Shown here: positions 2,364 to 18,996 of the stretch, piece by piece
Layout: each line of letters opens with the position of its first letter
Position numbering within the stretch: position 1 is the stretch's first letter
Origin: a virus
Direction: 5' to 3' (one strand)
DNA length: 18,996 nucleotides
UHGV virus genome: UHGV-0130646
Notes under the pieces: generated by a model
Told to the model about the DNA's origin: nothing
Databases searched by the model: none
Seen by the model: the letters and a program-made list of their open reading frames with translations, nothing else
Made by a program: the position numbers and the translations under genes

Positions 2364-4697
2364 TCAGGTTGTTGCAGGGTCGTCACATTTTGGCAGCCAG
2401 TCGCCGTAGCTTTCCTCTTTCAGCGTCAGGTTGGTCTGTATCCCCTGTTTGGTATGGCGCTTCTCGTAATTCAGTCCGTATTCCTTCAGCATCACCGGCA
2501 GCCCCAGCCCGAACATTTTCAGACTGAGTACATTCCGGTAGCCGTTTGCCTCCATGTAGGCCAGATAGGCGTGATAGAGGTATTTACGGTAATTGCGCGG
2601 GATGATACTGGCGTTCCCCATATACATGCCGCTGGTCTGCGGCAGGGTTTCCAGATAGCCGATAAAATCAAACGTCGGGTCGGCATCCCGTTTGATGTTC
2701 AGTGCCTCGTCTGAGTTCTGCTGGGACTGAAGCAGTGACCGGGCGAGCATCGGGTCGCTGAACTTCTGCATCAGGTGACGCACGATGACCGCCAGCTCGC
2801 GGGTGATTTTGTCCTTAAGCTGCGGGTCGCGCTCCTGCGGGGCTATCTGTTCCGGGAAGTGAATAATCACCCGCCGGCGTGACACGCCGCCGCTGCGGTC
2901 GGTGAAGCGCATCGGGTTATTGTTCACGGCCAGAATCACCGCCGGGATGTGCGTGGAGTACGCATCCCGGTATTTCGGGTCCACGGACACCGCATCGCCG
3001 CCGGTGATGGCCTTGAGTCCGGCACCGTCGCCGCTCCATTTTTCCTGGTCCGGCAGGCGTATCAGTGAGAAGCCAGTTAACGCGGCACGTTCACGCGGGG
3101 ATTCCAGCGTCTCGATGGTGGCCGACGTGGCGTTATCCTCCCCGGCCAGCAGGGTGGCTATTTCGGCCATGATACTTTTGCCGCTGCCGCCGGGACCGGT
3201 CACCTCCAGAAAGAGCTGCCAGTCGTAGCGGTTTGCCAGCACCATAAACAGTGCGGCCAGAATCACGTCGCGTTTTTCCGCACGGCCACCGGCGGCACGG
3301 TCAAGCCAGCGCCAGAACGCGGGGGCGTGGGTTTCCAGCGTTTCACCGTCCACCGGCGGGGTGAAATCCACATCACACAGGGTACGCATCCAGTGTGACG
3401 GACTGTGCGGGTGGAACGTGCCGTTCTGCGTGTCGAGCACGCCGTTACGAAAGCCAATCAGGCGGCGGGAGGGGGCTTCCTGCTGCGGAATAATCAGCTT
3501 CAGGGTGTCCACCACGGAGGCCACCTTCCCGGAGGAGAACGGCGCACGCAGCCGCTGAAACAGCCCGGCCACATCCCGGGCAAAGTCCTGTGGTGGCAGC
3601 ACCTTCCAGACACCATTTTCATAACGGGACAGAAGCTGGCCGTTGGCATCGACCGCGAGCGCCTCGCCGTAATGCTCATAGATACGCATGGCCTTTTCAC
3701 TGGTACTCATGGCGGAAAACTCCGCTTCGCTCATGGTGTCGAACGGGCTTTCAGCCGGTGGCCGGATGGCATCGTAAATGGCCTTACGGGTGGCTTCCCC
3801 GCCGTACTGCGTGAAGGCATCATTCCAGTCACCGAAGACCGGCGGCAGGGCAACAACACCTTCACACGCATCTGCGGCTGCGGCGGCTTTTTTCTGGCCG
3901 TCACCGCTGAGGTCACGGTCTGCGGCAAGGACAATCTGACAGGCCGGATGCTTCTGCCGGGCAAGGCTGGCCAGAGAAAGGAGGTTCACGGAAGAAAGCG
4001 CCACCATCACCGTTTCACCGGTCAGGTGATGTACGGTAAGTGCGGTCGCGTATCCCTCCGCTATCCACAGACGTTTTCCGGCCTGATTCTGTCCTTCAAG
4101 GATGTGACAGGTGCCCCTGACCTGCCCGCCTTTCAGGGTGCGCTTACGGCCGTCAGCGCTGATTAACTGAAGGTTAACAAGTTCGCCGCTGTCGTCATAC
4201 AGTGGCACCACAAGGTCACCGGCGCGCCAGCTCACGCCACCGGCTCTGTGTGTGCCGGTCAGCATCCGGCATTCCCGGCCGGGAAAGCCCTTGCGGGTCA
4301 GGTAGGCGTTACCGGTTCCGGTACGGGTTTTCGCCATCAGGGTTTGTGCCAGTGCGGCGGCGTTCTTCCGGGCAGCGTCTGTTTCAGCACCGGCGGCGGC
4401 CGTCACTGCCGGGTCAGCCGGGGGCAGGCTGCCGGTCACGGCAGCCACCTTTGTGGCCGCGTCGGACGGGGAGACACCAAACACCTTTTCAACCAGTTTC
4501 AGGCCGTCACCGGCACCACACTGATTGCAGTACCAGGTGCCGCGCCCCTCCCTGTCATCAAAACGGAAGCGGTCACTCCCGCCACAGACCGGACAGGGCT
4601 GATGACGGTTTTTCAGCACCTGAATCCCCAGCGCCGGGAGGATACGCGGCCAGTGGCCGAGCGCATGGCTGACGGTGGCGGTTACGTTCATTTTCAT
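2364..4697 (-). CDS. alpha: DNA primase-helicase (P4 alpha type)
   Basis: 777-aa ORF, the same length as P4 alpha. N-terminal zinc-binding motif CPVCGG...YCNQCG, a primase/TOPRIM-like middle region, and a C-terminal Walker A motif (GPGGSGKS). Confidence 0.92.
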   Translation of the reverse strand: MKMNVTATVSHALGHWPRILPALGIQVLKNRHQPCPVCGGSDRFRFDDREGRGTWYCNQCGAGDGLKLVEKVFGVSPSDAATKVAAVTGSLPPADPAVTAAAGAETDAARKNAAALAQTLMAKTRTGTGNAYLTRKGFPGRECRMLTGTHRAGGVSWRAGDLVVPLYDDSGELVNLQLISADGRKRTLKGGQVRGTCHILEGQNQAGKRLWIAEGYATALTVHHLTGETVMVALSSVNLLSLASLARQKHPACQIVLAADRDLSGDGQKKAAAAADACEGVVALPPVFGDWNDAFTQYGGEATRKAIYDAIRPPAESPFDTMSEAEFSAMSTSEKAMRIYEHYGEALAVDANGQLLSRYENGVWKVLPPQDFARDVAGLFQRLRAPFSSGKVASVVDTLKLIIPQQEAPSRRLIGFRNGVLDTQNGTFHPHSPSHWMRTLCDVDFTPPVDGETLETHAPAFWRWLDRAAGGRAEKRDVILAALFMVLANRYDWQLFLEVTGPGGSGKSIMAEIATLLAGEDNATSATIETLESPRERAALTGFSLIRLPDQEKWSGDGAGLKAITGGDAVSVDPKYRDAYSTHIPAVILAVNNNPMRFTDRSGGVSRRRVIIHFPEQIAPQERDPQLKDKITRELAVIVRHLMQKFSDPMLARSLLQSQQNSDEALNIKRDADPTFDFIGYLETLPQTSGMYMGNASIIPRNYRKYLYHAYLAYMEANGYRNVLSLKMFGLGLPVMLKEYGLNYEKRHTKQGIQTNLTLKEESYGDWLPKCDDPATT

Positions 4698-5903: not shown

Positions 5904-6495
5904 GGGACACCTCCATCACCGGCAGACGGGCAGCAAGGGAGAGCACATAGTCACGGACAAGGGAACGGCGGGCGCTGCGTTCATCACCGGCGACGGTGCG
6001 AAGCATACAGATACGGGGATGACGGTCTGCGCGACGGACAGCCGCAAACACAAAGACAAATTCAGGGTGTGAGGGGGTAAGGGTCGTAGCCATAAGGCAG
6101 CCTCCTTCGAGTAGCAAATAACTGCTATCGCCGGAGTTTCCACGCTCAATGGCGATAGCCCAGACGGGGGTGGAAATACCGGCCTCGAAGAATACCGGCC
6201 AGCCCGGAGGCTGCCCCGCCTGAGCTACCATTGACTCTGCGGCATAATGAGCGGACGCGGGCAGGATGCACGGAATGCCATCTGCACGACTGACCACACA
6301 CCACACCATAATCTGGCGCTCTGTGGCGTTGATTGCGACACAAAAAAAGACGCATGGCGCGTCATATGTCGCCTTCGAGTTACACGGGTTTCCACGCCCG
6401 GCTGCCGATTTTGCGGCAGCGGAAAAACTATATCCGCAAATGCCGGAAAAAGGCAAGCCAGAAAAAGGGACTTTTTGCAGAGCGGGCATCATCAT
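5896..6495 (-). CDS. orf199-like reading frame spanning the immunity region (kil-like N-terminus?); coding status uncertain
   Basis: Three in-frame ATGs (minus-strand ATGATGATG, plus 6487-6495) overlap the vis stop and give a 199-aa frame. In P4 this interval holds kil and the CI RNA immunity determinant, so the long ORF may not be fully translated. Confidence 0.3.
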
Positions 6496-6758
6496 GCGTC
6501 GTACCCCCGTTTGCGTCCGGCAATGCGCCCGGCCATCCATGCGGTGACTTCAGAGTGCAGCCAGGCCACATTTTTACCGCCAAGACTCACCTGCGGCGGA
6601 AATTCCCCCTTACGGATGAGTTCATAGATGGTCGAGCGTGACAGGCCGCACAGGTGCATCACTTCCGGCAGACGTAAAAAACGCTCCTGCGTGATGTCCG
6701 GCAGCGGCATCAGTGGCGTCACAGGGGCGGGAGACGGGGAAGAAAAAACAGCTTGCAT
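6492..6758 (-). CDS. vis: Vis / AlpA-family helix-turn-helix regulator (excisionase-like)
   Basis: 88-aa ORF with an AlpA-type HTH ([44 protein letters not shown]). GAGGT lies 5 nt upstream of the ATG. Confidence 0.8.
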
Positions 6759-6860
6759 CGGGCTACCTCGTTAATGTCCATACAGCACCGGATAAGTCCG
6801 TCCGGCTTCGGGTAGCGCTTTATTTTGTGAATATTTTCAGCAGACGCAACAGGGGGGATT

Positions 6861-6878
6861 TGTTCCGGCAGTCTTACA
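6861..6878 (-). promoter_or_regulatory. TGT-N12-ACA activator (Delta/Ogr-type) site upstream of vis; PLL-like late promoter
   Basis: TGTtccggcagtcttACA, about 100 bp upstream of the vis start codon (6758), the distance expected for a -55-centred activator site on a late promoter with a short leader. Confidence 0.5.
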
Positions 6879-6903
6879 ATGCTTGTGTATTTTTTGTTCA
6901 TCT

Positions 6904-6933
6904 CCACTTAAAGTCATTTAAAGCCACTTAAAG
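6904..6933. repeat. Three tandem 10-bp repeats (CCACTTAAAG / TCATTTAAAG / CCACTTAAAG)
   Basis: Read directly from the sequence. The 10-bp period places the copies on one face of the helix. Located between the PLL-like site and the ori1-like iterons. Confidence 0.6.
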
Positions 6934-7037
6934 CAATTCGTAATTTTTATAGTGAAATACAAATCGTTTTTTCTTATTCATTCCCGGCGAATTAATAAAA
7001 ACAAACAGTAATAAACAGCACAAAAAGTCTATGAGCG

Positions 7038-7142
7038 GGTGAACAGTGGTGAACAGACGGTGAACAGTCATTACTGCGATTGTTCACCCTTTAACTTACT
7101 GTATTACTTATCTTTTTTCTTAAGGTGAACAGAGGTGAACAG
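7038..7142. repeat. ori1-like origin iterons (GGTGAACAG x5 direct, one inverted)
   Basis: GGTGAACAG at 7038, 7048, 7058, 7124 and 7134, plus inverted TGTTCACCC at 7081, within an AT-rich stretch. Same octamer as in the crr repeats. Confidence 0.7.
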
Positions 7143-7220
7143 TAAAATATAAAAAAACAAACAGTAAGCCGGTTTTTCCTGCGACCTTTTCCTGGCTTGC
7201 CGGTCTGAGGATGAGTCTCC

Positions 7221-7276
7221 TGTGTCAGGGCTGGCACATCTGCAATGCGTCGTGTTGTTGTCCGGTGTACGTCACA
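7221..7276 (+). promoter_or_regulatory. Psid-like late promoter with two TGT-N12-ACA activator sites
   Basis: TGTgtcagggctggcACA (7221-7238) and TGTccggtgtacgtcACA (7259-7276), centres 38 bp apart, upstream of the sid start at 7311. Confidence 0.6.
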
Positions 7277-7310
7277 ATTTTCTTAACCTGAAGTGACGAG
7301 GAGCCGGAAA

Positions 7311-8045
7311 ATGTCTGACAACACCATCCCTGAATATCTGCAACCCGCACTGGCACAACTGGAAAAGGCCAGAGCCGCTCATCTTGAGAACGCCCGCCTG
7401 ATGGATGAGACCGTCACGGCCATTGAACGGGCAGAGCAGGAAAAAAATGCGCTGACGCAGGCCGACGGAAACGACGCTGACGACTGGCGCACGGCCTTTC
7501 GTGCAGCCGGTGGTGTCCTGAGCGACGAGCTGAAACAGCGCCACATTGAGCGCGTGGCACGCCGGGAGCTGGTACAGGAATATGACAATCTGGCCGTGGT
7601 GCTGAATTTTGAACGCGAACGCCTGAAAGGGGCGTGTGACAGCACGGCCACCGCCTACCGGAAGGCACATCATCACCTTCTGAGTCTGTATGCAGAGCAT
7701 GAGCTGGAACACGCCCTGAATGAAACCTGTGAGGCGCTTGTCCGGGCAATGCATCTGAGCATTCTGGTACAGGAAAATCCGCTCGCCAACACCACCGGCC
7801 ATCAGGGCTACGTCGCACCGGAAAAGGCTGTCATGCAGCAGGTGAAATCATCGCTGGAACAGAAAATTAAACAGATGCAAATCAGTCTCACCGGCGAGCC
7901 GGTTCTCCGGCTGACCGGACTGTCAGCGGCAACACTCCCGCACATGGATTATGAGGTGGCAGGCACACCGGCACAGCGCAAGGTGTGGCAGGACAAAATA
8001 GACCAGCAGGGTGCAGAGCTTAAGGCCAGAGGACTGCTGTCATGA
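7311..8045 (+). CDS. sid: Capsid size determination protein Sid (external scaffold)
   Basis: 244 aa from the ATG at 7311 (GAGGAG 6 nt upstream); the ORF track's GTG at 7293 is probably not the start. Coiled-coil-rich translation; stop overlaps the delta start. Length matches P4 Sid. Confidence 0.88.
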   Translation: MSDNTIPEYLQPALAQLEKARAAHLENARLMDETVTAIERAEQEKNALTQADGNDADDWRTAFRAAGGVLSDELKQRHIERVARRELVQEYDNLAVVLNFERERLKGACDSTATAYRKAHHHLLSLYAEHELEHALNETCEALVRAMHLSILVQENPLANTTGHQGYVAPEKAVMQQVKSSLEQKIKQMQISLTGEPVLRLTGLSAATLPHMDYEVAGTPAQRKVWQDKIDQQGAELKARGLLS

Positions 8046-8615: not shown

Positions 8616-9188
8616 ATGGAAAGCACAGCCTTACAGCAGGCCTTTGACACCTGTCAGAATAACAAAGCAGCATGGCTGCAACACAAAAATGAGCTGGCAG
8701 CGGCCGAACAGGAATACCTGCGGCTTCTGTCAGGAGAAGGCAGAAACGTCAGTCGCCTGGACGAATTACGCAATATTATCGAAGTCAGAAAATGGCAGGT
8801 GAATCAGGCCGCCAGTCGTTATATTCGTTCGCATGAAGCCGTTCAGCACATCAGCATCCGCGACCGGCTGAATGATTTTATGCAGCAGCACGGCACAGCA
8901 CTGGCGGCGGCACTGGCACCGGAGCTGATGGGCTACAGTGAGCTGACGGCCATTGCCCGAAACTGTGCCATACAGCGTGCCACAGATGCCCTGCGTGAAG
9001 CCCTTCTGTCCTGGCTTGCGAAGGGGGAAAAAATTAATTATTCCGCACAGGATAGCGACATTTTAACGACCATCGGATTCAGGCCTGACGCGGCTTCGGT
9101 GGATGACAGCCGTGAAAAATTCACCCCTGCGCAGAACATGATTTTTTCGCGTAAAAGTGCGCAACTGGCATCACATCAGTCTGTGTAA
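8616..9188 (+). CDS. psu: Polarity suppression / capsid decoration protein Psu
   Basis: 190 aa; N-terminus MESTALQQAFDTCQNNKAAWLQ matches my recollection of P4 Psu. Last gene before cos. Confidence 0.88.
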   Translation: MESTALQQAFDTCQNNKAAWLQHKNELAAAEQEYLRLLSGEGRNVSRLDELRNIIEVRKWQVNQAASRYIRSHEAVQHISIRDRLNDFMQQHGTALAAALAPELMGYSELTAIARNCAIQRATDALREALLSWLAKGEKINYSAQDSDILTTIGFRPDAASVDDSREKFTPAQNMIFSRKSAQLASHQSV

Positions 9189-9230
9189 AATTCCCCGAAA
9201 ATCCGCCCGTTTTTACTGAAAAAAGCCATG

Positions 9231-9265
9231 CATCGATAAGGTGCATGGCTTTGCATGCGTTTTCC
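9231..9265 (+). terminator. Rho-independent terminator downstream of psu
   Basis: GCCATGCA (9235-9242), 9-nt loop, TGCATGGC (9252-9259), followed by TTTGCATGCGTTTT. Confidence 0.55.
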
Positions 9266-9352
9266 TGCCTCATTTTCTGCAGACCGCGCCATTCCCGGCG
9301 CGGCCTGAGCGTGTCAGTGCAACTGCATTGAAACCGCCCCGCAAAGCGGGCG

Positions 9353-9371
9353 GGCGAGGCGGGGAAAGCAC
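9353..9371. other. cos site: 19-nt P2/P4 cohesive-end sequence
   Basis: GGCGAGGCGGGGAAAGCAC matches the P2/P4 cohesive end as I recall it. It is uninterrupted, so this is a cos junction and not a mature genome end. Confidence 0.8.
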
Positions 9372-9502
9372 TGCGCGCTGGCGGTGGTGCTGATTTTATT
9401 TTTTAGCGTCTCAGCGCGTCGTGATGGCGTTTAGATTGTGCGCCGGGGCGTTGGTGTGTCTGCGGGCTGTTTTGTGCGGTGGTGAGCGTGTGAGGGCGTG
9501 AT

Positions 9503-9524
9503 GACGGGGTGTAAAAAAGCCGCC
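9503..9524 (-). terminator. Rho-independent terminator downstream of Q (minus strand)
   Basis: GCCGCC / GGCGGC stem (9509-9524) followed on the minus strand by T6 (plus-strand A-run 9503-9508). Confidence 0.5.
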
Positions 9525-9539
9525 CGCAGGCGGCGATGT

Positions 9540-10574
9540 TCAGCCGTTGTCAGTGTCCAGTGAGTAGTTTTTAAAGCGGATGACCTCCTGACCGAGCCAG
9601 CCGTTTATTTCCCGAATCCTGTCCTGTAACGGGATAAGCTCATTGCGGACAAAGACCTTTGCCACTTTCTCAATATCGCCCAGCGACCCGACGTTCTCCG
9701 GCTTGCCGCCCATCAACTGAAAGGGGATGCGGTGCGCGTCCAGCAGGTCTGCGGCACTGGCTTTTTTGATATTAAAAAAATCGTCCTTCGTCGCCACTTC
9801 ACTGAGCGGGATAATTTTGATGCCGTCTGGCTTTCCCTGTGGTGCATAGAGAAACAGATTATTAAAGTTATTGCGTCCTTTCGACCTGGCCATGTTTTCG
9901 CGAAGTGAGTCAATGTAATCGCGATCCTGCAATGCGTCAGTGATATACATGATATATCCGGCATGTGCGCCGTTTTCGTAATACTTGCGGCGGAACAGCG
10001 TGGCCGACTCATTCAGCCAGGCGGAGTTAAGGGCGCTGAGATATTCCGGCAGGCCGTACAGCTCCTGATTAATATCAGGCTCCAGCAGGTGAAACACGGA
10101 GCCGGGCGCGAAGGCTGTCGGCTCGTTGAAGGACGGCACCCACCAGTAAACATCCTCTTCCACGCCACGACGGGTATATTTTGCCGGTGAGGTTTCCAGT
10201 CTGATGATCTTACCGGTAGTGCTGTAACGCTTTTCCAGAAACGCATTACCGAACACCAGAAAATCCAGCACAAAGCGGCTGAAATCCTGCTGGGAAAGCC
10301 ACGGGTGCGGGATAAACGTTGAGGCCAGAATATTACGTTTGACGTAAATCGGTGAGCTGTGATGCACGGCAGCACGCAGGCTTTTTGCCAGACCGGTAAA
10401 GCTGATTGGTGGCTCATACCATCTGCCGTTACTGATGCACTCGACATAATCCAGAATGTCACGGCGGTCGAGTACCGGCACCGGCTCACCAAAGGTGAAT
10501 GCCGCCATTTTCGGGGCGCTGGCGGTCATTTTTTTTGCCGCAGGTTGCGGTGTTTTCCCTTTTTTCTTGCTCAT
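9540..10574 (-). CDS. Q: Portal protein (P2 gpQ type)
   Basis: 344 aa, same length as P2 Q, with a lysine-rich N-terminus. Start overlaps the P stop in a TGATG arrangement. Confidence 0.9.
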   Translation of the reverse strand: MSKKKGKTPQPAAKKMTASAPKMAAFTFGEPVPVLDRRDILDYVECISNGRWYEPPISFTGLAKSLRAAVHHSSPIYVKRNILASTFIPHPWLSQQDFSRFVLDFLVFGNAFLEKRYSTTGKIIRLETSPAKYTRRGVEEDVYWWVPSFNEPTAFAPGSVFHLLEPDINQELYGLPEYLSALNSAWLNESATLFRRKYYENGAHAGYIMYITDALQDRDYIDSLRENMARSKGRNNFNNLFLYAPQGKPDGIKIIPLSEVATKDDFFNIKKASAADLLDAHRIPFQLMGGKPENVGSLGDIEKVAKVFVRNELIPLQDRIREINGWLGQEVIRFKNYSLDTDNG

Positions 10575-12346
10575 CAGTAAAACTCCAGAATGGTGGATGT
10601 CAGCGGGGTGCTGATACCGGCGGTGAGTGGCTCATTTAACAGGGCGTGCATGGTCGCCCAGGCGAGGTCGGCGTGGCTGGCTTCCTCGCTGCGGCTGGCC
10701 TCATAGGTGGCGCTGCGCCCGCTGCTGGTCATGGTCTTGCGGATAGCCATAAACGAGCTGGTGATGTCGGTGGCGCTGACGTCGTATTCCAGACAGCCAC
10801 GGCGGATAACGTCTTTTGCCTTGAGCACCATTGCGGTTTTCATTTCCGGCGTGTAGCGGATGTCGCGCGCGGCGGGATAGAACGAGCGCACGAGCTGGAA
10901 CACGCCGACACCGAGGCCGGTGGCATCAATACCGATGTATTCGACGTTGTATTTTTCGGTGAGTTTGCGGATGGATTCAGCCTGGGTGGCAAAGTCCATG
11001 CCTTTCCACTGGTGACGCTCAAGTATTCTGAATTTGCCACCGGCCACCACCGGCGGTGCCAGCACCACGCATCCGGCGCTGTCGCCACGGTGTGACGGGT
11101 CGTAACCAATCCATACCGGGCGGGAGCCGAACGGATTCGCGGCAAACGGCGCATAGTCTTCCCATTCTTCCAGCGTGTCGACCATGCAGCGTTGCAGCTC
11201 CTCGAACGGGAACACCGACGCCTTGTCGTCAACAAATTCACACATGAACAGGTTTTTAAAATCGTCGGCGCTGTTTTCGCGTTTAAGCTGCTCAATGTCG
11301 AACAGCGTGCAGCCGCCTTTCAGGGCGTCCTCAATGGTGACAATCTGCCGCCACTGGCCGTCCGCACAGAGAAGCCCACCGGCAAGGGCGTTATGACTGA
11401 CGTCGATTTCCACGCGTTCGGCGGCGCTGGCGCGTCCCCGGTTGAACAGTTCACCCGACCAGAACGGATAGGCGTCGTGCGCCAGCGTGGACGGGGTGGA
11501 GAAATAGGTCGAGCGCAGGTGACTCTGTGAGGCCATACCTGATGCCACCTTACGCAGTACCTGAAAATTCGGGATCCAGAAAATCTCATCGACGTACAGG
11601 TCGCCGTTATGGCTCTGCGCGGTGTTGGAGTTGGTGCCGAGAAAAATCAGTTTTGCGCCGTTATTGCCCAGGACAATCGGGTCACCGGTCAGGTCAACGT
11701 CAACCAGCCGGGCAAAGGCGATGATGTATTCGCGGAACACATACGCCTGCGTTTTACTGGCCGACAGAAAAATCTGGTTATGACCGGTTTTCAGGGCGCG
11801 CAGCAGCGCCTCGCGGGAAAAATAAAACGTCGCGCCAATCTGGCGGGATTTCAGGATATCGCGGATACGGTGCTCAAGCCCGGCGCGATACCAGTGCAAC
11901 TGATATTCGAAAGACTGCTCAAAGAAAATCTGCTCCAGCTTTTCGATAGCCTCGTCACTGAAAAAATTCTTTTTCGGTTTGCGACGCCCGCCTTTGTTGC
12001 GGTTAGCGACGTTCGGATTAAGGTCTGCCTCGTTGCCGGTCTGACTGTAGCGGTTGACCCGCGCCAGCCGTTCAATCTGGCGTCCCAGCAGGTCAATTTC
12101 CTTGAAGTCACCGCCGGTTTTCTGCGGTTTGATGATGAGCTGGGTCAGCCGCGCTTCCAGACTCATTTCGACACGGCTGATGGGGGCAACGCTGTCCCAG
12201 CCGTCGCGCTGTTTCCAGCTCTGCACCGTCGGGCGTTTCATCTGCAACATGGCGGCAATCTGCGGCACGGAAAATCCCTGCCAGTACAGCAGCGCCGCCT
12301 GACGACGCGGGTCGTGTAAAAGAGTGGTGTCTGTGGTGATGGTCAT
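10574..12346 (-). CDS. P: Terminase large (ATPase) subunit (P2 gpP type)
   Basis: 590 aa from the internal ATG at 12346 (MTITTDTTLL..., GAGGT upstream), matching P2 P; the ORF track's 600-aa start is probably too far upstream. Confidence 0.9.
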   Translation of the reverse strand: MTITTDTTLLHDPRRQAALLYWQGFSVPQIAAMLQMKRPTVQSWKQRDGWDSVAPISRVEMSLEARLTQLIIKPQKTGGDFKEIDLLGRQIERLARVNRYSQTGNEADLNPNVANRNKGGRRKPKKNFFSDEAIEKLEQIFFEQSFEYQLHWYRAGLEHRIRDILKSRQIGATFYFSREALLRALKTGHNQIFLSASKTQAYVFREYIIAFARLVDVDLTGDPIVLGNNGAKLIFLGTNSNTAQSHNGDLYVDEIFWIPNFQVLRKVASGMASQSHLRSTYFSTPSTLAHDAYPFWSGELFNRGRASAAERVEIDVSHNALAGGLLCADGQWRQIVTIEDALKGGCTLFDIEQLKRENSADDFKNLFMCEFVDDKASVFPFEELQRCMVDTLEEWEDYAPFAANPFGSRPVWIGYDPSHRGDSAGCVVLAPPVVAGGKFRILERHQWKGMDFATQAESIRKLTEKYNVEYIGIDATGLGVGVFQLVRSFYPAARDIRYTPEMKTAMVLKAKDVIRRGCLEYDVSATDITSSFMAIRKTMTSSGRSATYEASRSEEASHADLAWATMHALLNEPLTAGISTPLTSTILEFY

Positions 12347-12519
12347 GAATACCTCGCCGTGATGAATACACGGCAAGGCTACTGAGTCGCGCCCCGCGAT
12401 TCGCTAAGGTGCTGTTGTGTCAGTGATAAGCCATCCGGGACTGATGGCGGAGGATGCGCATCGTCGGGAAACTGATGCCGACATGTGACTCCTCTAATCA
12501 CTATTCAGGACTCCTGACA
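12347..12519. promoter_or_regulatory. Divergent late promoter region (PP / PO type)
   Basis: 173-bp gap between the divergent P and O starts, as in P2. I did not find a perfect TGT-N12-ACA here, so the call is positional only. Confidence 0.45.
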
Positions 12520-18791: not shown

Positions 18792-18996
18792 TTATGAGTG
18801 ATTTTTATTTGATGCTTTGTATTCTACAACCTTCTTATTGGCGTAAAGGAATTTTGTATATGACAGAAATATAACCAGGCCTGAAATGAAATAGATGAGG
18901 GATATTATTAATAATGCTTTTTTTTGGCTGTTATTATCTTTAATTTCCTGACTTAACCATTCCGAGTCCTCCTCGTTTAGCCGTAAGAGCTTATTG
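18792..18996 (-). CDS. Hypothetical small membrane protein, 5'-truncated at the window edge; AT-rich ORF at the S-V variable position
   Basis: Minus-strand frame is open from the window edge to the stop at 18792-18794 (67 codons in window: ...SQKKALLIISLIYFISGLVIFLSYTKFLYANKK...), with one predicted TM helix. Not in the ORF track because no start codon lies within the window. Confidence 0.45.
   Translation of the reverse strand, partial: NKLLRLNEEDSEWLSQEIKDNNSQKKALLIISLIYFISGLVIFLSYTKFLYANKKVVEYKASNKNHS

Follow-up and report, generated by a model that had tools for sequence, protein, structure and literature searches.

The window, namely the whole 18,996-bp stretch of DNA analysed here, contains the region of satellite phage P4 that extends from the alpha gene through the vis gene to the origin of replication. 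From position 6500 to 7400 it is 97.8% identical to P4 (X51522) along the whole length, and subtracting 2272 from a P4 coordinate gives the window coordinate. The gene order of P4 is kept around the three tandem repeats of interest: alpha (2364-4697, minus strand), vis, a non-coding region that holds the promoter PLL and the origin, and then sid, delta, and psu on the plus strand. The vis gene (ORF88; 6492-6758, minus strand) encodes an excisionase/regulator of the AlpA family (PF05930, E-value 7e-21) and is the first gene transcribed from PLL. Upstream of it lies a block, TATTTTGTGAATATTTT in plus-strand letters (6821-6837), which is kept in nearly all related satellites and is probably the -10 region of PLL on the minus strand. 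It is followed by the TGT-N12-ACA dyad TGTTCCGGCAGTCTTACA (6861-6878), the delta/Ogr-type late-activator site of PLL. The ori type I iterons, GGTGAACA / TGTTCACC, are present in six copies at 7038-7141 and are the reported sites of the alpha protein. In the late promoters of P2 and P4 we take the activator dyad to be centred at -55, and the start of transcription from PLL is on that assumption estimated to lie near 6815. No sigma-70 consensus promoter was found in 6700-7350, as is to be expected of a late promoter that depends upon an activator. A terminator scan flags GGTGAACAGTCATTACTGCGATTGTTCACC at 7059-7088, which corresponds to two type I iterons in inverted arrangement within ori1.

The attP of P4 is intact in the window. 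The right end of P4 is followed by the shared 19-nt cos sequence GGCGAGGCGGGGAAAGCAC (9352-9370) and, directly after cos, by the left end of a P2-like phage that continues to position 18996 with Q, P, O, N, M, L, etc. Within this part the portal gene Q (9540-10574) and the terminase gene P (10574-12376) are both on the minus strand. The junction of P4, cos, and P2-like DNA occurs in 0 of 5426 complete E. coli genomes, and it looks like either a cos-to-cos hetero-concatemer or an assembly chimera that arose via the shared cos region.

The repeats at 6904-6933 read CCACTTAAAG TCATTTAAAG CCACTTAAAG with an exact 10-bp period. Tandem Repeats Finder delineates them from 6904 to 6934, with a period of 10, 3.1 copies, 80% matches, and a score of 48. 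Both the sequence and the program thus confirm the preliminary description, which had recorded three tandem repeats with an exact 10-bp period. Its placement of the repeats between PLL and the iterons likewise holds, for they are flanked by the dyad at 6861-6878 on one side and by the type I iterons at 7038-7141 on the other. All 30 bp are identical to positions 9176-9205 of P4 X51522 (30/30), and 20 substitutions are found elsewhere in 6500-7400. The P4 record carries three features named "ori type 2 repeat" at 9176-9185, 9186-9195, and 9196-9205, which correspond to 6904-6913, 6914-6923, and 6924-6933 of the window on the plus strand, and it places all three inside a rep_origin feature that spans 9086-9809. 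In the older P4 record, X02534, the same place is marked as imperfect direct repeats 3 and 3'. When up to two mismatches are allowed, a single decamer has 13 matches in the window versus 12.3 expected. The decamer word itself is therefore not enriched, and the signal resides in its phased arrangement. The hexamer TTAAAG is found on the plus strand five times in the whole window, and three of these copies are in the repeats.

The consensus of the P2 cox-box has been given as TTAAAG/CNCA and later as TTAAA(G/C)NC(A/C), with the starts of the boxes positioned 10-11 bases apart (PMC3936717; consensus also PMC5009727). With the frame of the decamers shifted by 4 nt, three such boxes are observed on the plus strand. 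The first, TTAAAGTCA (6908-6916), and the second, TTAAAGCCA (6918-6926), match the consensus at 9/9 positions, and the third, TTAAAGCAA (6928-6936), matches at 8/9; GCAATTC comes after it, just as it comes after the final box in the Pc operator of P2. The starts at 6908, 6918, and 6928 are separated by 10 and 10 bp on one strand. A triple of this type, defined as same-strand boxes with at least 8/9 matches each and a spacing of 10-11 bp, is found a single time in the 18,996 bp analysed, at the repeats, and was absent from all of 1000 first-order Markov simulations. The preliminary description had found no known consensus that the motif would match, a statement that must be revised given the fit to TTAAA(G/C)NC(A/C) and the annotation in X51522. 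Its proposal that a small protein binds cooperatively to one face of the helix, on the other hand, agrees with the published mode of P2 Cox and of directionality factors (PMC3936717; PMC7498355).

A local alignment of positions 6905-6939 (CACTTAAAGTCATTTAAAGCCACTTAAA-GCAATTC) with P2 positions 25951-25986 (CACTAAAAGGCATTATAAGACA-TTAAACGCAATTC) reveals 30/36 identities. The P2 segment overlaps the annotated -10 (25962-25967) and -35 (25982-25987) elements of Pc. When the segment surrounding the P4 boxes was compared with 18 helper switch regions, P2 gave the best score with a z of about 7 against shuffles, and the next best had a z of 3.6.

P2 Cox is known to bind upstream of PLL and to activate it, which leads to derepression of the P4 prophage (Saha et al. 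1989, cited in PMC3936717 and PMC5009727), and the RefSeq annotation of P2 cox states that it "activates P11 promoter of satellite phage P4". At PLL, the initial cox-box has been described as facing away from the -10/-35 regions, such that the promoter stays accessible (PMC3936717). PLL fires leftwards and its dyad is located at 6861-6878, and thus the plus-strand boxes lie upstream of PLL and are directed away from it, in agreement with that description. Cox forms an oligomeric filament by which DNA is bent or wrapped, and the filament is proposed to grow along the direction of the boxes. The protein protects at least 70 nt and is reported to have at least six boxes, and bending requires more than four (PMC3936717). 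The Cox protein of WPhi neither binds to cox-boxes nor activates P4 (PMC5009727). Near PLL there are three strong boxes and two candidates at 7/9, as compared to the literature value of at least six. The candidates, both on the plus strand, are TTCATCTCC (6897-6905), which begins 11 bp before box 1, and TTATAGTGA (6947-6955), 19 bp after box 3. Each may be a weak box, and the latter would fall within the region of at least 70 nt that Cox reportedly protects. Judging from secondary statements and from the match to the consensus, the protected region would extend from 6897 to 6965.

Taken together, the three decamers are very probably the Cox-binding boxes of the helper P2 upstream of PLL and, as such, the helper sensor of P4. 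Determined here were the sequence of the repeats with its period and chance level, its agreement with the consensus, its homology to the operator at P2 Pc, and its position and orientation. The binding of Cox upstream of PLL, the activation of PLL by Cox, and the failure of WPhi Cox to do either are taken from the cited papers. The exact edges of the footprint, the coordinate of the start site, and the consequences downstream are inferred or drawn from established knowledge of P4. The repeats as such are already known, being annotated in the P4 record and tied to the activation of PLL by Cox since 1989. The gain with respect to them is that the protein is reassigned, from Vis to Cox, and that the motif is named; little else about them is new.

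A possible sequence of events can be outlined as follows. A P2-type helper that goes lytic would produce the small winged-helix protein Cox, which forms oligomers that bend or wrap DNA. This protein would nucleate cooperatively on the boxes, one per helical turn, at approximately -93 to -121 from the PLL start, and the resulting filament would spread away from PLL. In this position Cox would be expected to switch PLL on rather than off, because the boxes are upstream of the promoter and not over it as they are at P2 Pc. Transcripts from PLL presumably express vis and the left operon up to alpha, and thus the satellite would be excised and replicated as a result of helper Cox. Specifically, transcription would supply the excisionase encoded by vis and, with the downstream left operon, the primase-helicase alpha, and the P4 prophage would be derepressed, excised, and replicated. 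The box array would in this way function as the sensor by which the satellite perceives its helper.

The boxes are situated in a variable cassette of 47 bp (6897-6943). Within it, this P4 and the P4-like elements of E. coli are 51-53% identical, whereas the flanks in an alignment of four E. coli elements (L385-L388) are 96.7-100% identical on the left and about 95.5% identical on the right. The P4-type vis-PLL segment (409 nt) is present in 1412 of 5426 complete E. coli genomes, with 981 records at 95% identity or more, but the P4-type slot region (81 nt) is found in only 441 E. coli genomes. Among the vis-PLL matches listed, many end at window position 6895-6896, just short of the boxes. The sequences that replace the P4 version in E. 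coli are again 10-bp phased direct repeats, such as ACTGGAAGGGTCTCAAAGGGTTCTGAAGGACCTGGAA and CCAGATAGCTTTAAAACGCTCTGGAAGGAGCTGGAAAA. In 38 satellites from many genera the slot nearly always contains 3-6 direct repeats with a period of 10-11 bp, and in loci L006-L045 it lies about 125-225 bp upstream of the vis homologue. Arrays of the TGGCAA type occupy the slot in Klebsiella, Enterobacter, Citrobacter, Kluyvera, Raoultella, and other genera. A changing slot next to a conserved Vis and conserved type I iterons fits a site for a helper protein. Two IMG/VR contigs of genome 2660238469, L211 (4645-13096) and L234 (4-8442), carry two vis and two sid homologues in tandem, which suggests that either the sid-ori-vis segment was duplicated locally or two satellites are nested in head-to-tail order.

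The annotated Apl operators of phage 186, between pR and pL (L046:2557-2624), read TGGCTA..CGCAAT..TGGCAA..TGGCAA..GTCAAA..TGCAAA..TGGCTA. At least three phased words of the TGGCAA type are found in 12 of the 38 slots, but in none of 11,400 shuffled slots and in none of 1,429 other 140-bp windows taken from these loci. A BLAST search of 2.3 Gb of phage DNA with the cassette of L006 had its best matches at the annotated Apl site of 186 and also located the cI-apl intergenic region of Klebsiella Peduoviridae; among the cassettes searched in this way, L006 alone matched Apl operators directly.

All cassettes were then scored, with shuffle controls, against the 18 helper switch regions, which represent the main Cox and Apl groups of the phage collection. 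The best z is at least 5 in 21 of 37 cassettes, a count of interrelated satellite loci rather than of independent events, and the matches are selective. Note that shuffling destroys the repeat structure, such that the shuffle null is lenient and the off-diagonal scores provide the fairer control. The P4 cassette of the window is matched best by P2 (z of about 7, as above), those of L006 and L027 by phage 186 (z of about 11), and those of L022, L024, and L040 by Yersinia phage MHG75 (z of 9-11). The cassette of L041 is paired with Klebsiella phage Kp4852-2, in reverse orientation, at a z of about 11. That of E. coli W150 is paired with Salmonella phage SW3 (19/22 identical, z of 6-7), and that of L010 with phage 720R8 (z of about 4.8). 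In seven of the eight best alignments displayed, the orientation is the same as in the P4/P2 pair, the one pair for which the literature provides experimental support (PMC3936717, PMC5009727).

Among the 18 helpers sampled, no convincing counterpart was observed for the cassettes of L014/L021, L016, L023/L043, L029, L032, and L039. For the E. coli USMARC/O157 cassette, a resemblance to the 12-nt Cox repeat of WPhi, noticed by eye only, was rejected after the scored alignment gave a z of about 2; its best helper is phage ev239 with a z of just about 4. BLAST searches of the 2.3-Gb phage collection with the cassettes of L014 (TTGGCC), L009 (TGGYAA), L041 (TTGCCA), and USMARC (CTGGAAGG) yielded either no matches or chance matches to unrelated phages. 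In pattern scans of IMG/VR the TTGGCC array retrieved other satellites only, and neither it nor the GTGCA array retrieved a helper switch region. The GTGCA scan did reveal a site that is conserved close to the portal gene in distant P2-like phages. The site, GTGCA-N5-GTGCA-N5-RTGCA, is positioned about 450 bp beyond Q in L268, L271, L274, L292, and others, a group with Q about 45% identical, and it is possibly a site for a packaging (cos-region) protein, unrelated to the P4 boxes. Searches for related loci with Apl and Cox returned near-identical copies only and added little diversity. In L397 (phage fiAA91-ss, KF322032 26223-27087) an IS21 istB occupies the place of C/cox, and a partial match to Cox remains.

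The preliminary description had put forward Vis as a candidate for the protein that binds the three repeats, in a cooperative manner and with autoregulation of PLL as the outcome. The vis gene lies directly downstream of PLL, and Vis reportedly acts as a repressor of that promoter. Furthermore, Vis is an RDF, and RDFs bind to direct repeats that are spaced by roughly one turn of the helix (PMC7498355). The variability of the slot argues otherwise. In a sample of 42 loci with Vis homologues (65-100% identity, many Enterobacterales genera), residues 24-65, which comprise the helix-turn-helix and the wing, are essentially invariant, yet the slot repeats differ completely. Unrelated words, namely TTAAAG, TGGCAA, TTGGCC, GTGCA, and CTGGAAGG, occur in the slot among Vis-encoding loci. 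Indeed, an identical Vis protein, WP_001149160.1, is encoded by two E. coli elements with different cassettes. RDF sites away from att are known to resemble those at att (PMC7498355), but the best local score between the slot and the int-to-core attP region at 1664-1845, where Vis has been reported to bind, is only 12 (z = -1.2). That same region contains neither cox-box matches of at least 8/9 nor a TTAAAG-type word. In addition, a position at about -93 to -121 is an odd location for a repressor, and the family of Vis (Phage_AlpA, PF05930) is not that of Cox (PF10743). Vis is thus probably the wrong protein for these boxes, and we consider it very unlikely that it reads them; its link to them would be an indirect one only, in that vis is the gene expressed first from the promoter under the control of the boxes. 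A better, albeit weak, candidate for a Vis site in the PLL region is suggested by sequence comparison to be CCGGATAAGTCCG in the PLL leader (6788-6800). This is the best element common to the PLL region and attP, with 12/13 matches to the reverse complement of attP positions 1826-1838, although the corresponding z of 1.9 is not significant alone. The int-to-core attP region has 10-bp phased direct repeats of its own at 1747-1776 and 1814-1840 (CTGGATTTAG/CTGGATATCC/TCGGACAACA and TCAGGA/TCCGGA/TCCGGA), which may correspond to the two Vis boxes that have been reported.

The label "ori type 2 repeat" inside the rep_origin feature of X51522 points to a different function, in which the "type II" repeats would be an accessory part of ori1, where the binding of alpha or of a host factor helps the origin to open or to become organised, and the distance of about 100 bp to the type I iterons accords with this. 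The decamers, however, do not resemble the type I iteron, no word such as TGTTCACC or GGTGAACA being common to them, and the iterons keep their sequence and position across relatives in which the slot is replaced. A site specific for alpha should co-vary with the other sites of alpha, and thus replacement of the slot is unexpected for a site that alpha reads. Moreover, alpha is said to have been shown to bind the type I iterons only. An origin function as the explanation for the repeats is therefore highly improbable in our estimation, although an additional role in replication may exist given the GenBank label. Finally, the occurrence of AAA every 10 bp upstream of a weak promoter raises the issue of a bend that requires no protein, whereby three phased A-tracts would curve the DNA upstream of PLL and stimulate transcription alone. 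Against this stand the length of the tracts, just 3 bp, and the same-slot cassettes of close relatives, which are devoid of phased A-tracts. Furthermore, the repeats agree with a protein-binding consensus and, beyond the A-tracts, with the P2 operator, which is much more specific, and we assign to intrinsic curvature a probability close to negligible.

A broader proposal extends from P4 to its relatives. The slot at approximately 6897-6943 might equally be, or not be, a swappable helper-sensor cassette of P4-like satellites, which in each lineage would be a look-alike of the Cox or Apl operator of a particular P2-like helper, placed upstream of a PLL-type promoter, and which would decide which helpers wake the satellite. 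A full-text literature search, with little coverage of the older literature, returned no description of such a pattern, and no mention of Cox or PLL was found in the main survey of P4-like satellites; the observation is possibly new. According to a statement in PMC8628076, over 30% of Enterobacterales genomes contain P4-like satellites. If the proposal is true, about 45 bp may allow the helper range of these satellites to be read in part, and the cassettes would represent a clear case of a parasite that tracks the regulatory protein of its host by capturing that protein's binding site. The boxes themselves are ordinary, and it is the pattern of cassettes across satellites that merits further study.

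The closest known counterpart of the P4 boxes is the operator of the Pe-Pc switch of P2. It shares with them the consensus word, the head-to-tail arrangement with a spacing of 9-10 bp, and the GCAATTC tail (30/36 identical), and the same protein, Cox, has been reported to bind to both (PMC3936717, PMC5009727). At P2 Pc, however, the boxes overlap the -10 and -35 elements and Cox represses, whereas in P4 they are located about 60-90 bp upstream of the promoter core and face away from it, and Cox activates. The Cox site at attP of P2 (protein_bind 24399-24472, NC_001895) is likewise bound by Cox and contains several boxes about 10-11 bp apart. Its matches are weaker, its boxes face both ways, and its role is in the directionality of recombination rather than in promoter control. 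The Apl operators of phage 186, with seven sites between pR and pL and five at attP, resemble the P4 boxes in being short direct repeats every 10-11 bp that are bound cooperatively, with at least three adjacent sites needed (PMC7498355), a number that agrees with the three boxes of P4. Their word is TGGCAA-like rather than TTAAAG, and the Pfam model for Cox does not recognise Apl. Arrays of the Apl type fill the slot in other P4-like satellites but not in P4.

The X1-X1.5-X2 sites of lambda Xis also comprise three head-to-tail sites upon which a small winged-helix protein forms a micro-filament and bends the DNA. Xis and its sites differ from the P4 system in family and in sequence, and they serve excision at attR rather than activation of a promoter in another element. 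Within P4 itself, the type I iterons (TGTTCACC) are, like the boxes, short repeats, and the two are neighbours in the annotated origin. The iterons nevertheless have another word, are of mixed orientation, and are conserved across satellites in which the cassette varies. In the SaPI/PICI systems the satellite is silent until a specific helper protein appears, and the SaPI repressor Stl is inactivated by protein-protein contact. The logic of derepression is the same in P4, which instead possesses a DNA copy of the operator of its helper's regulator.
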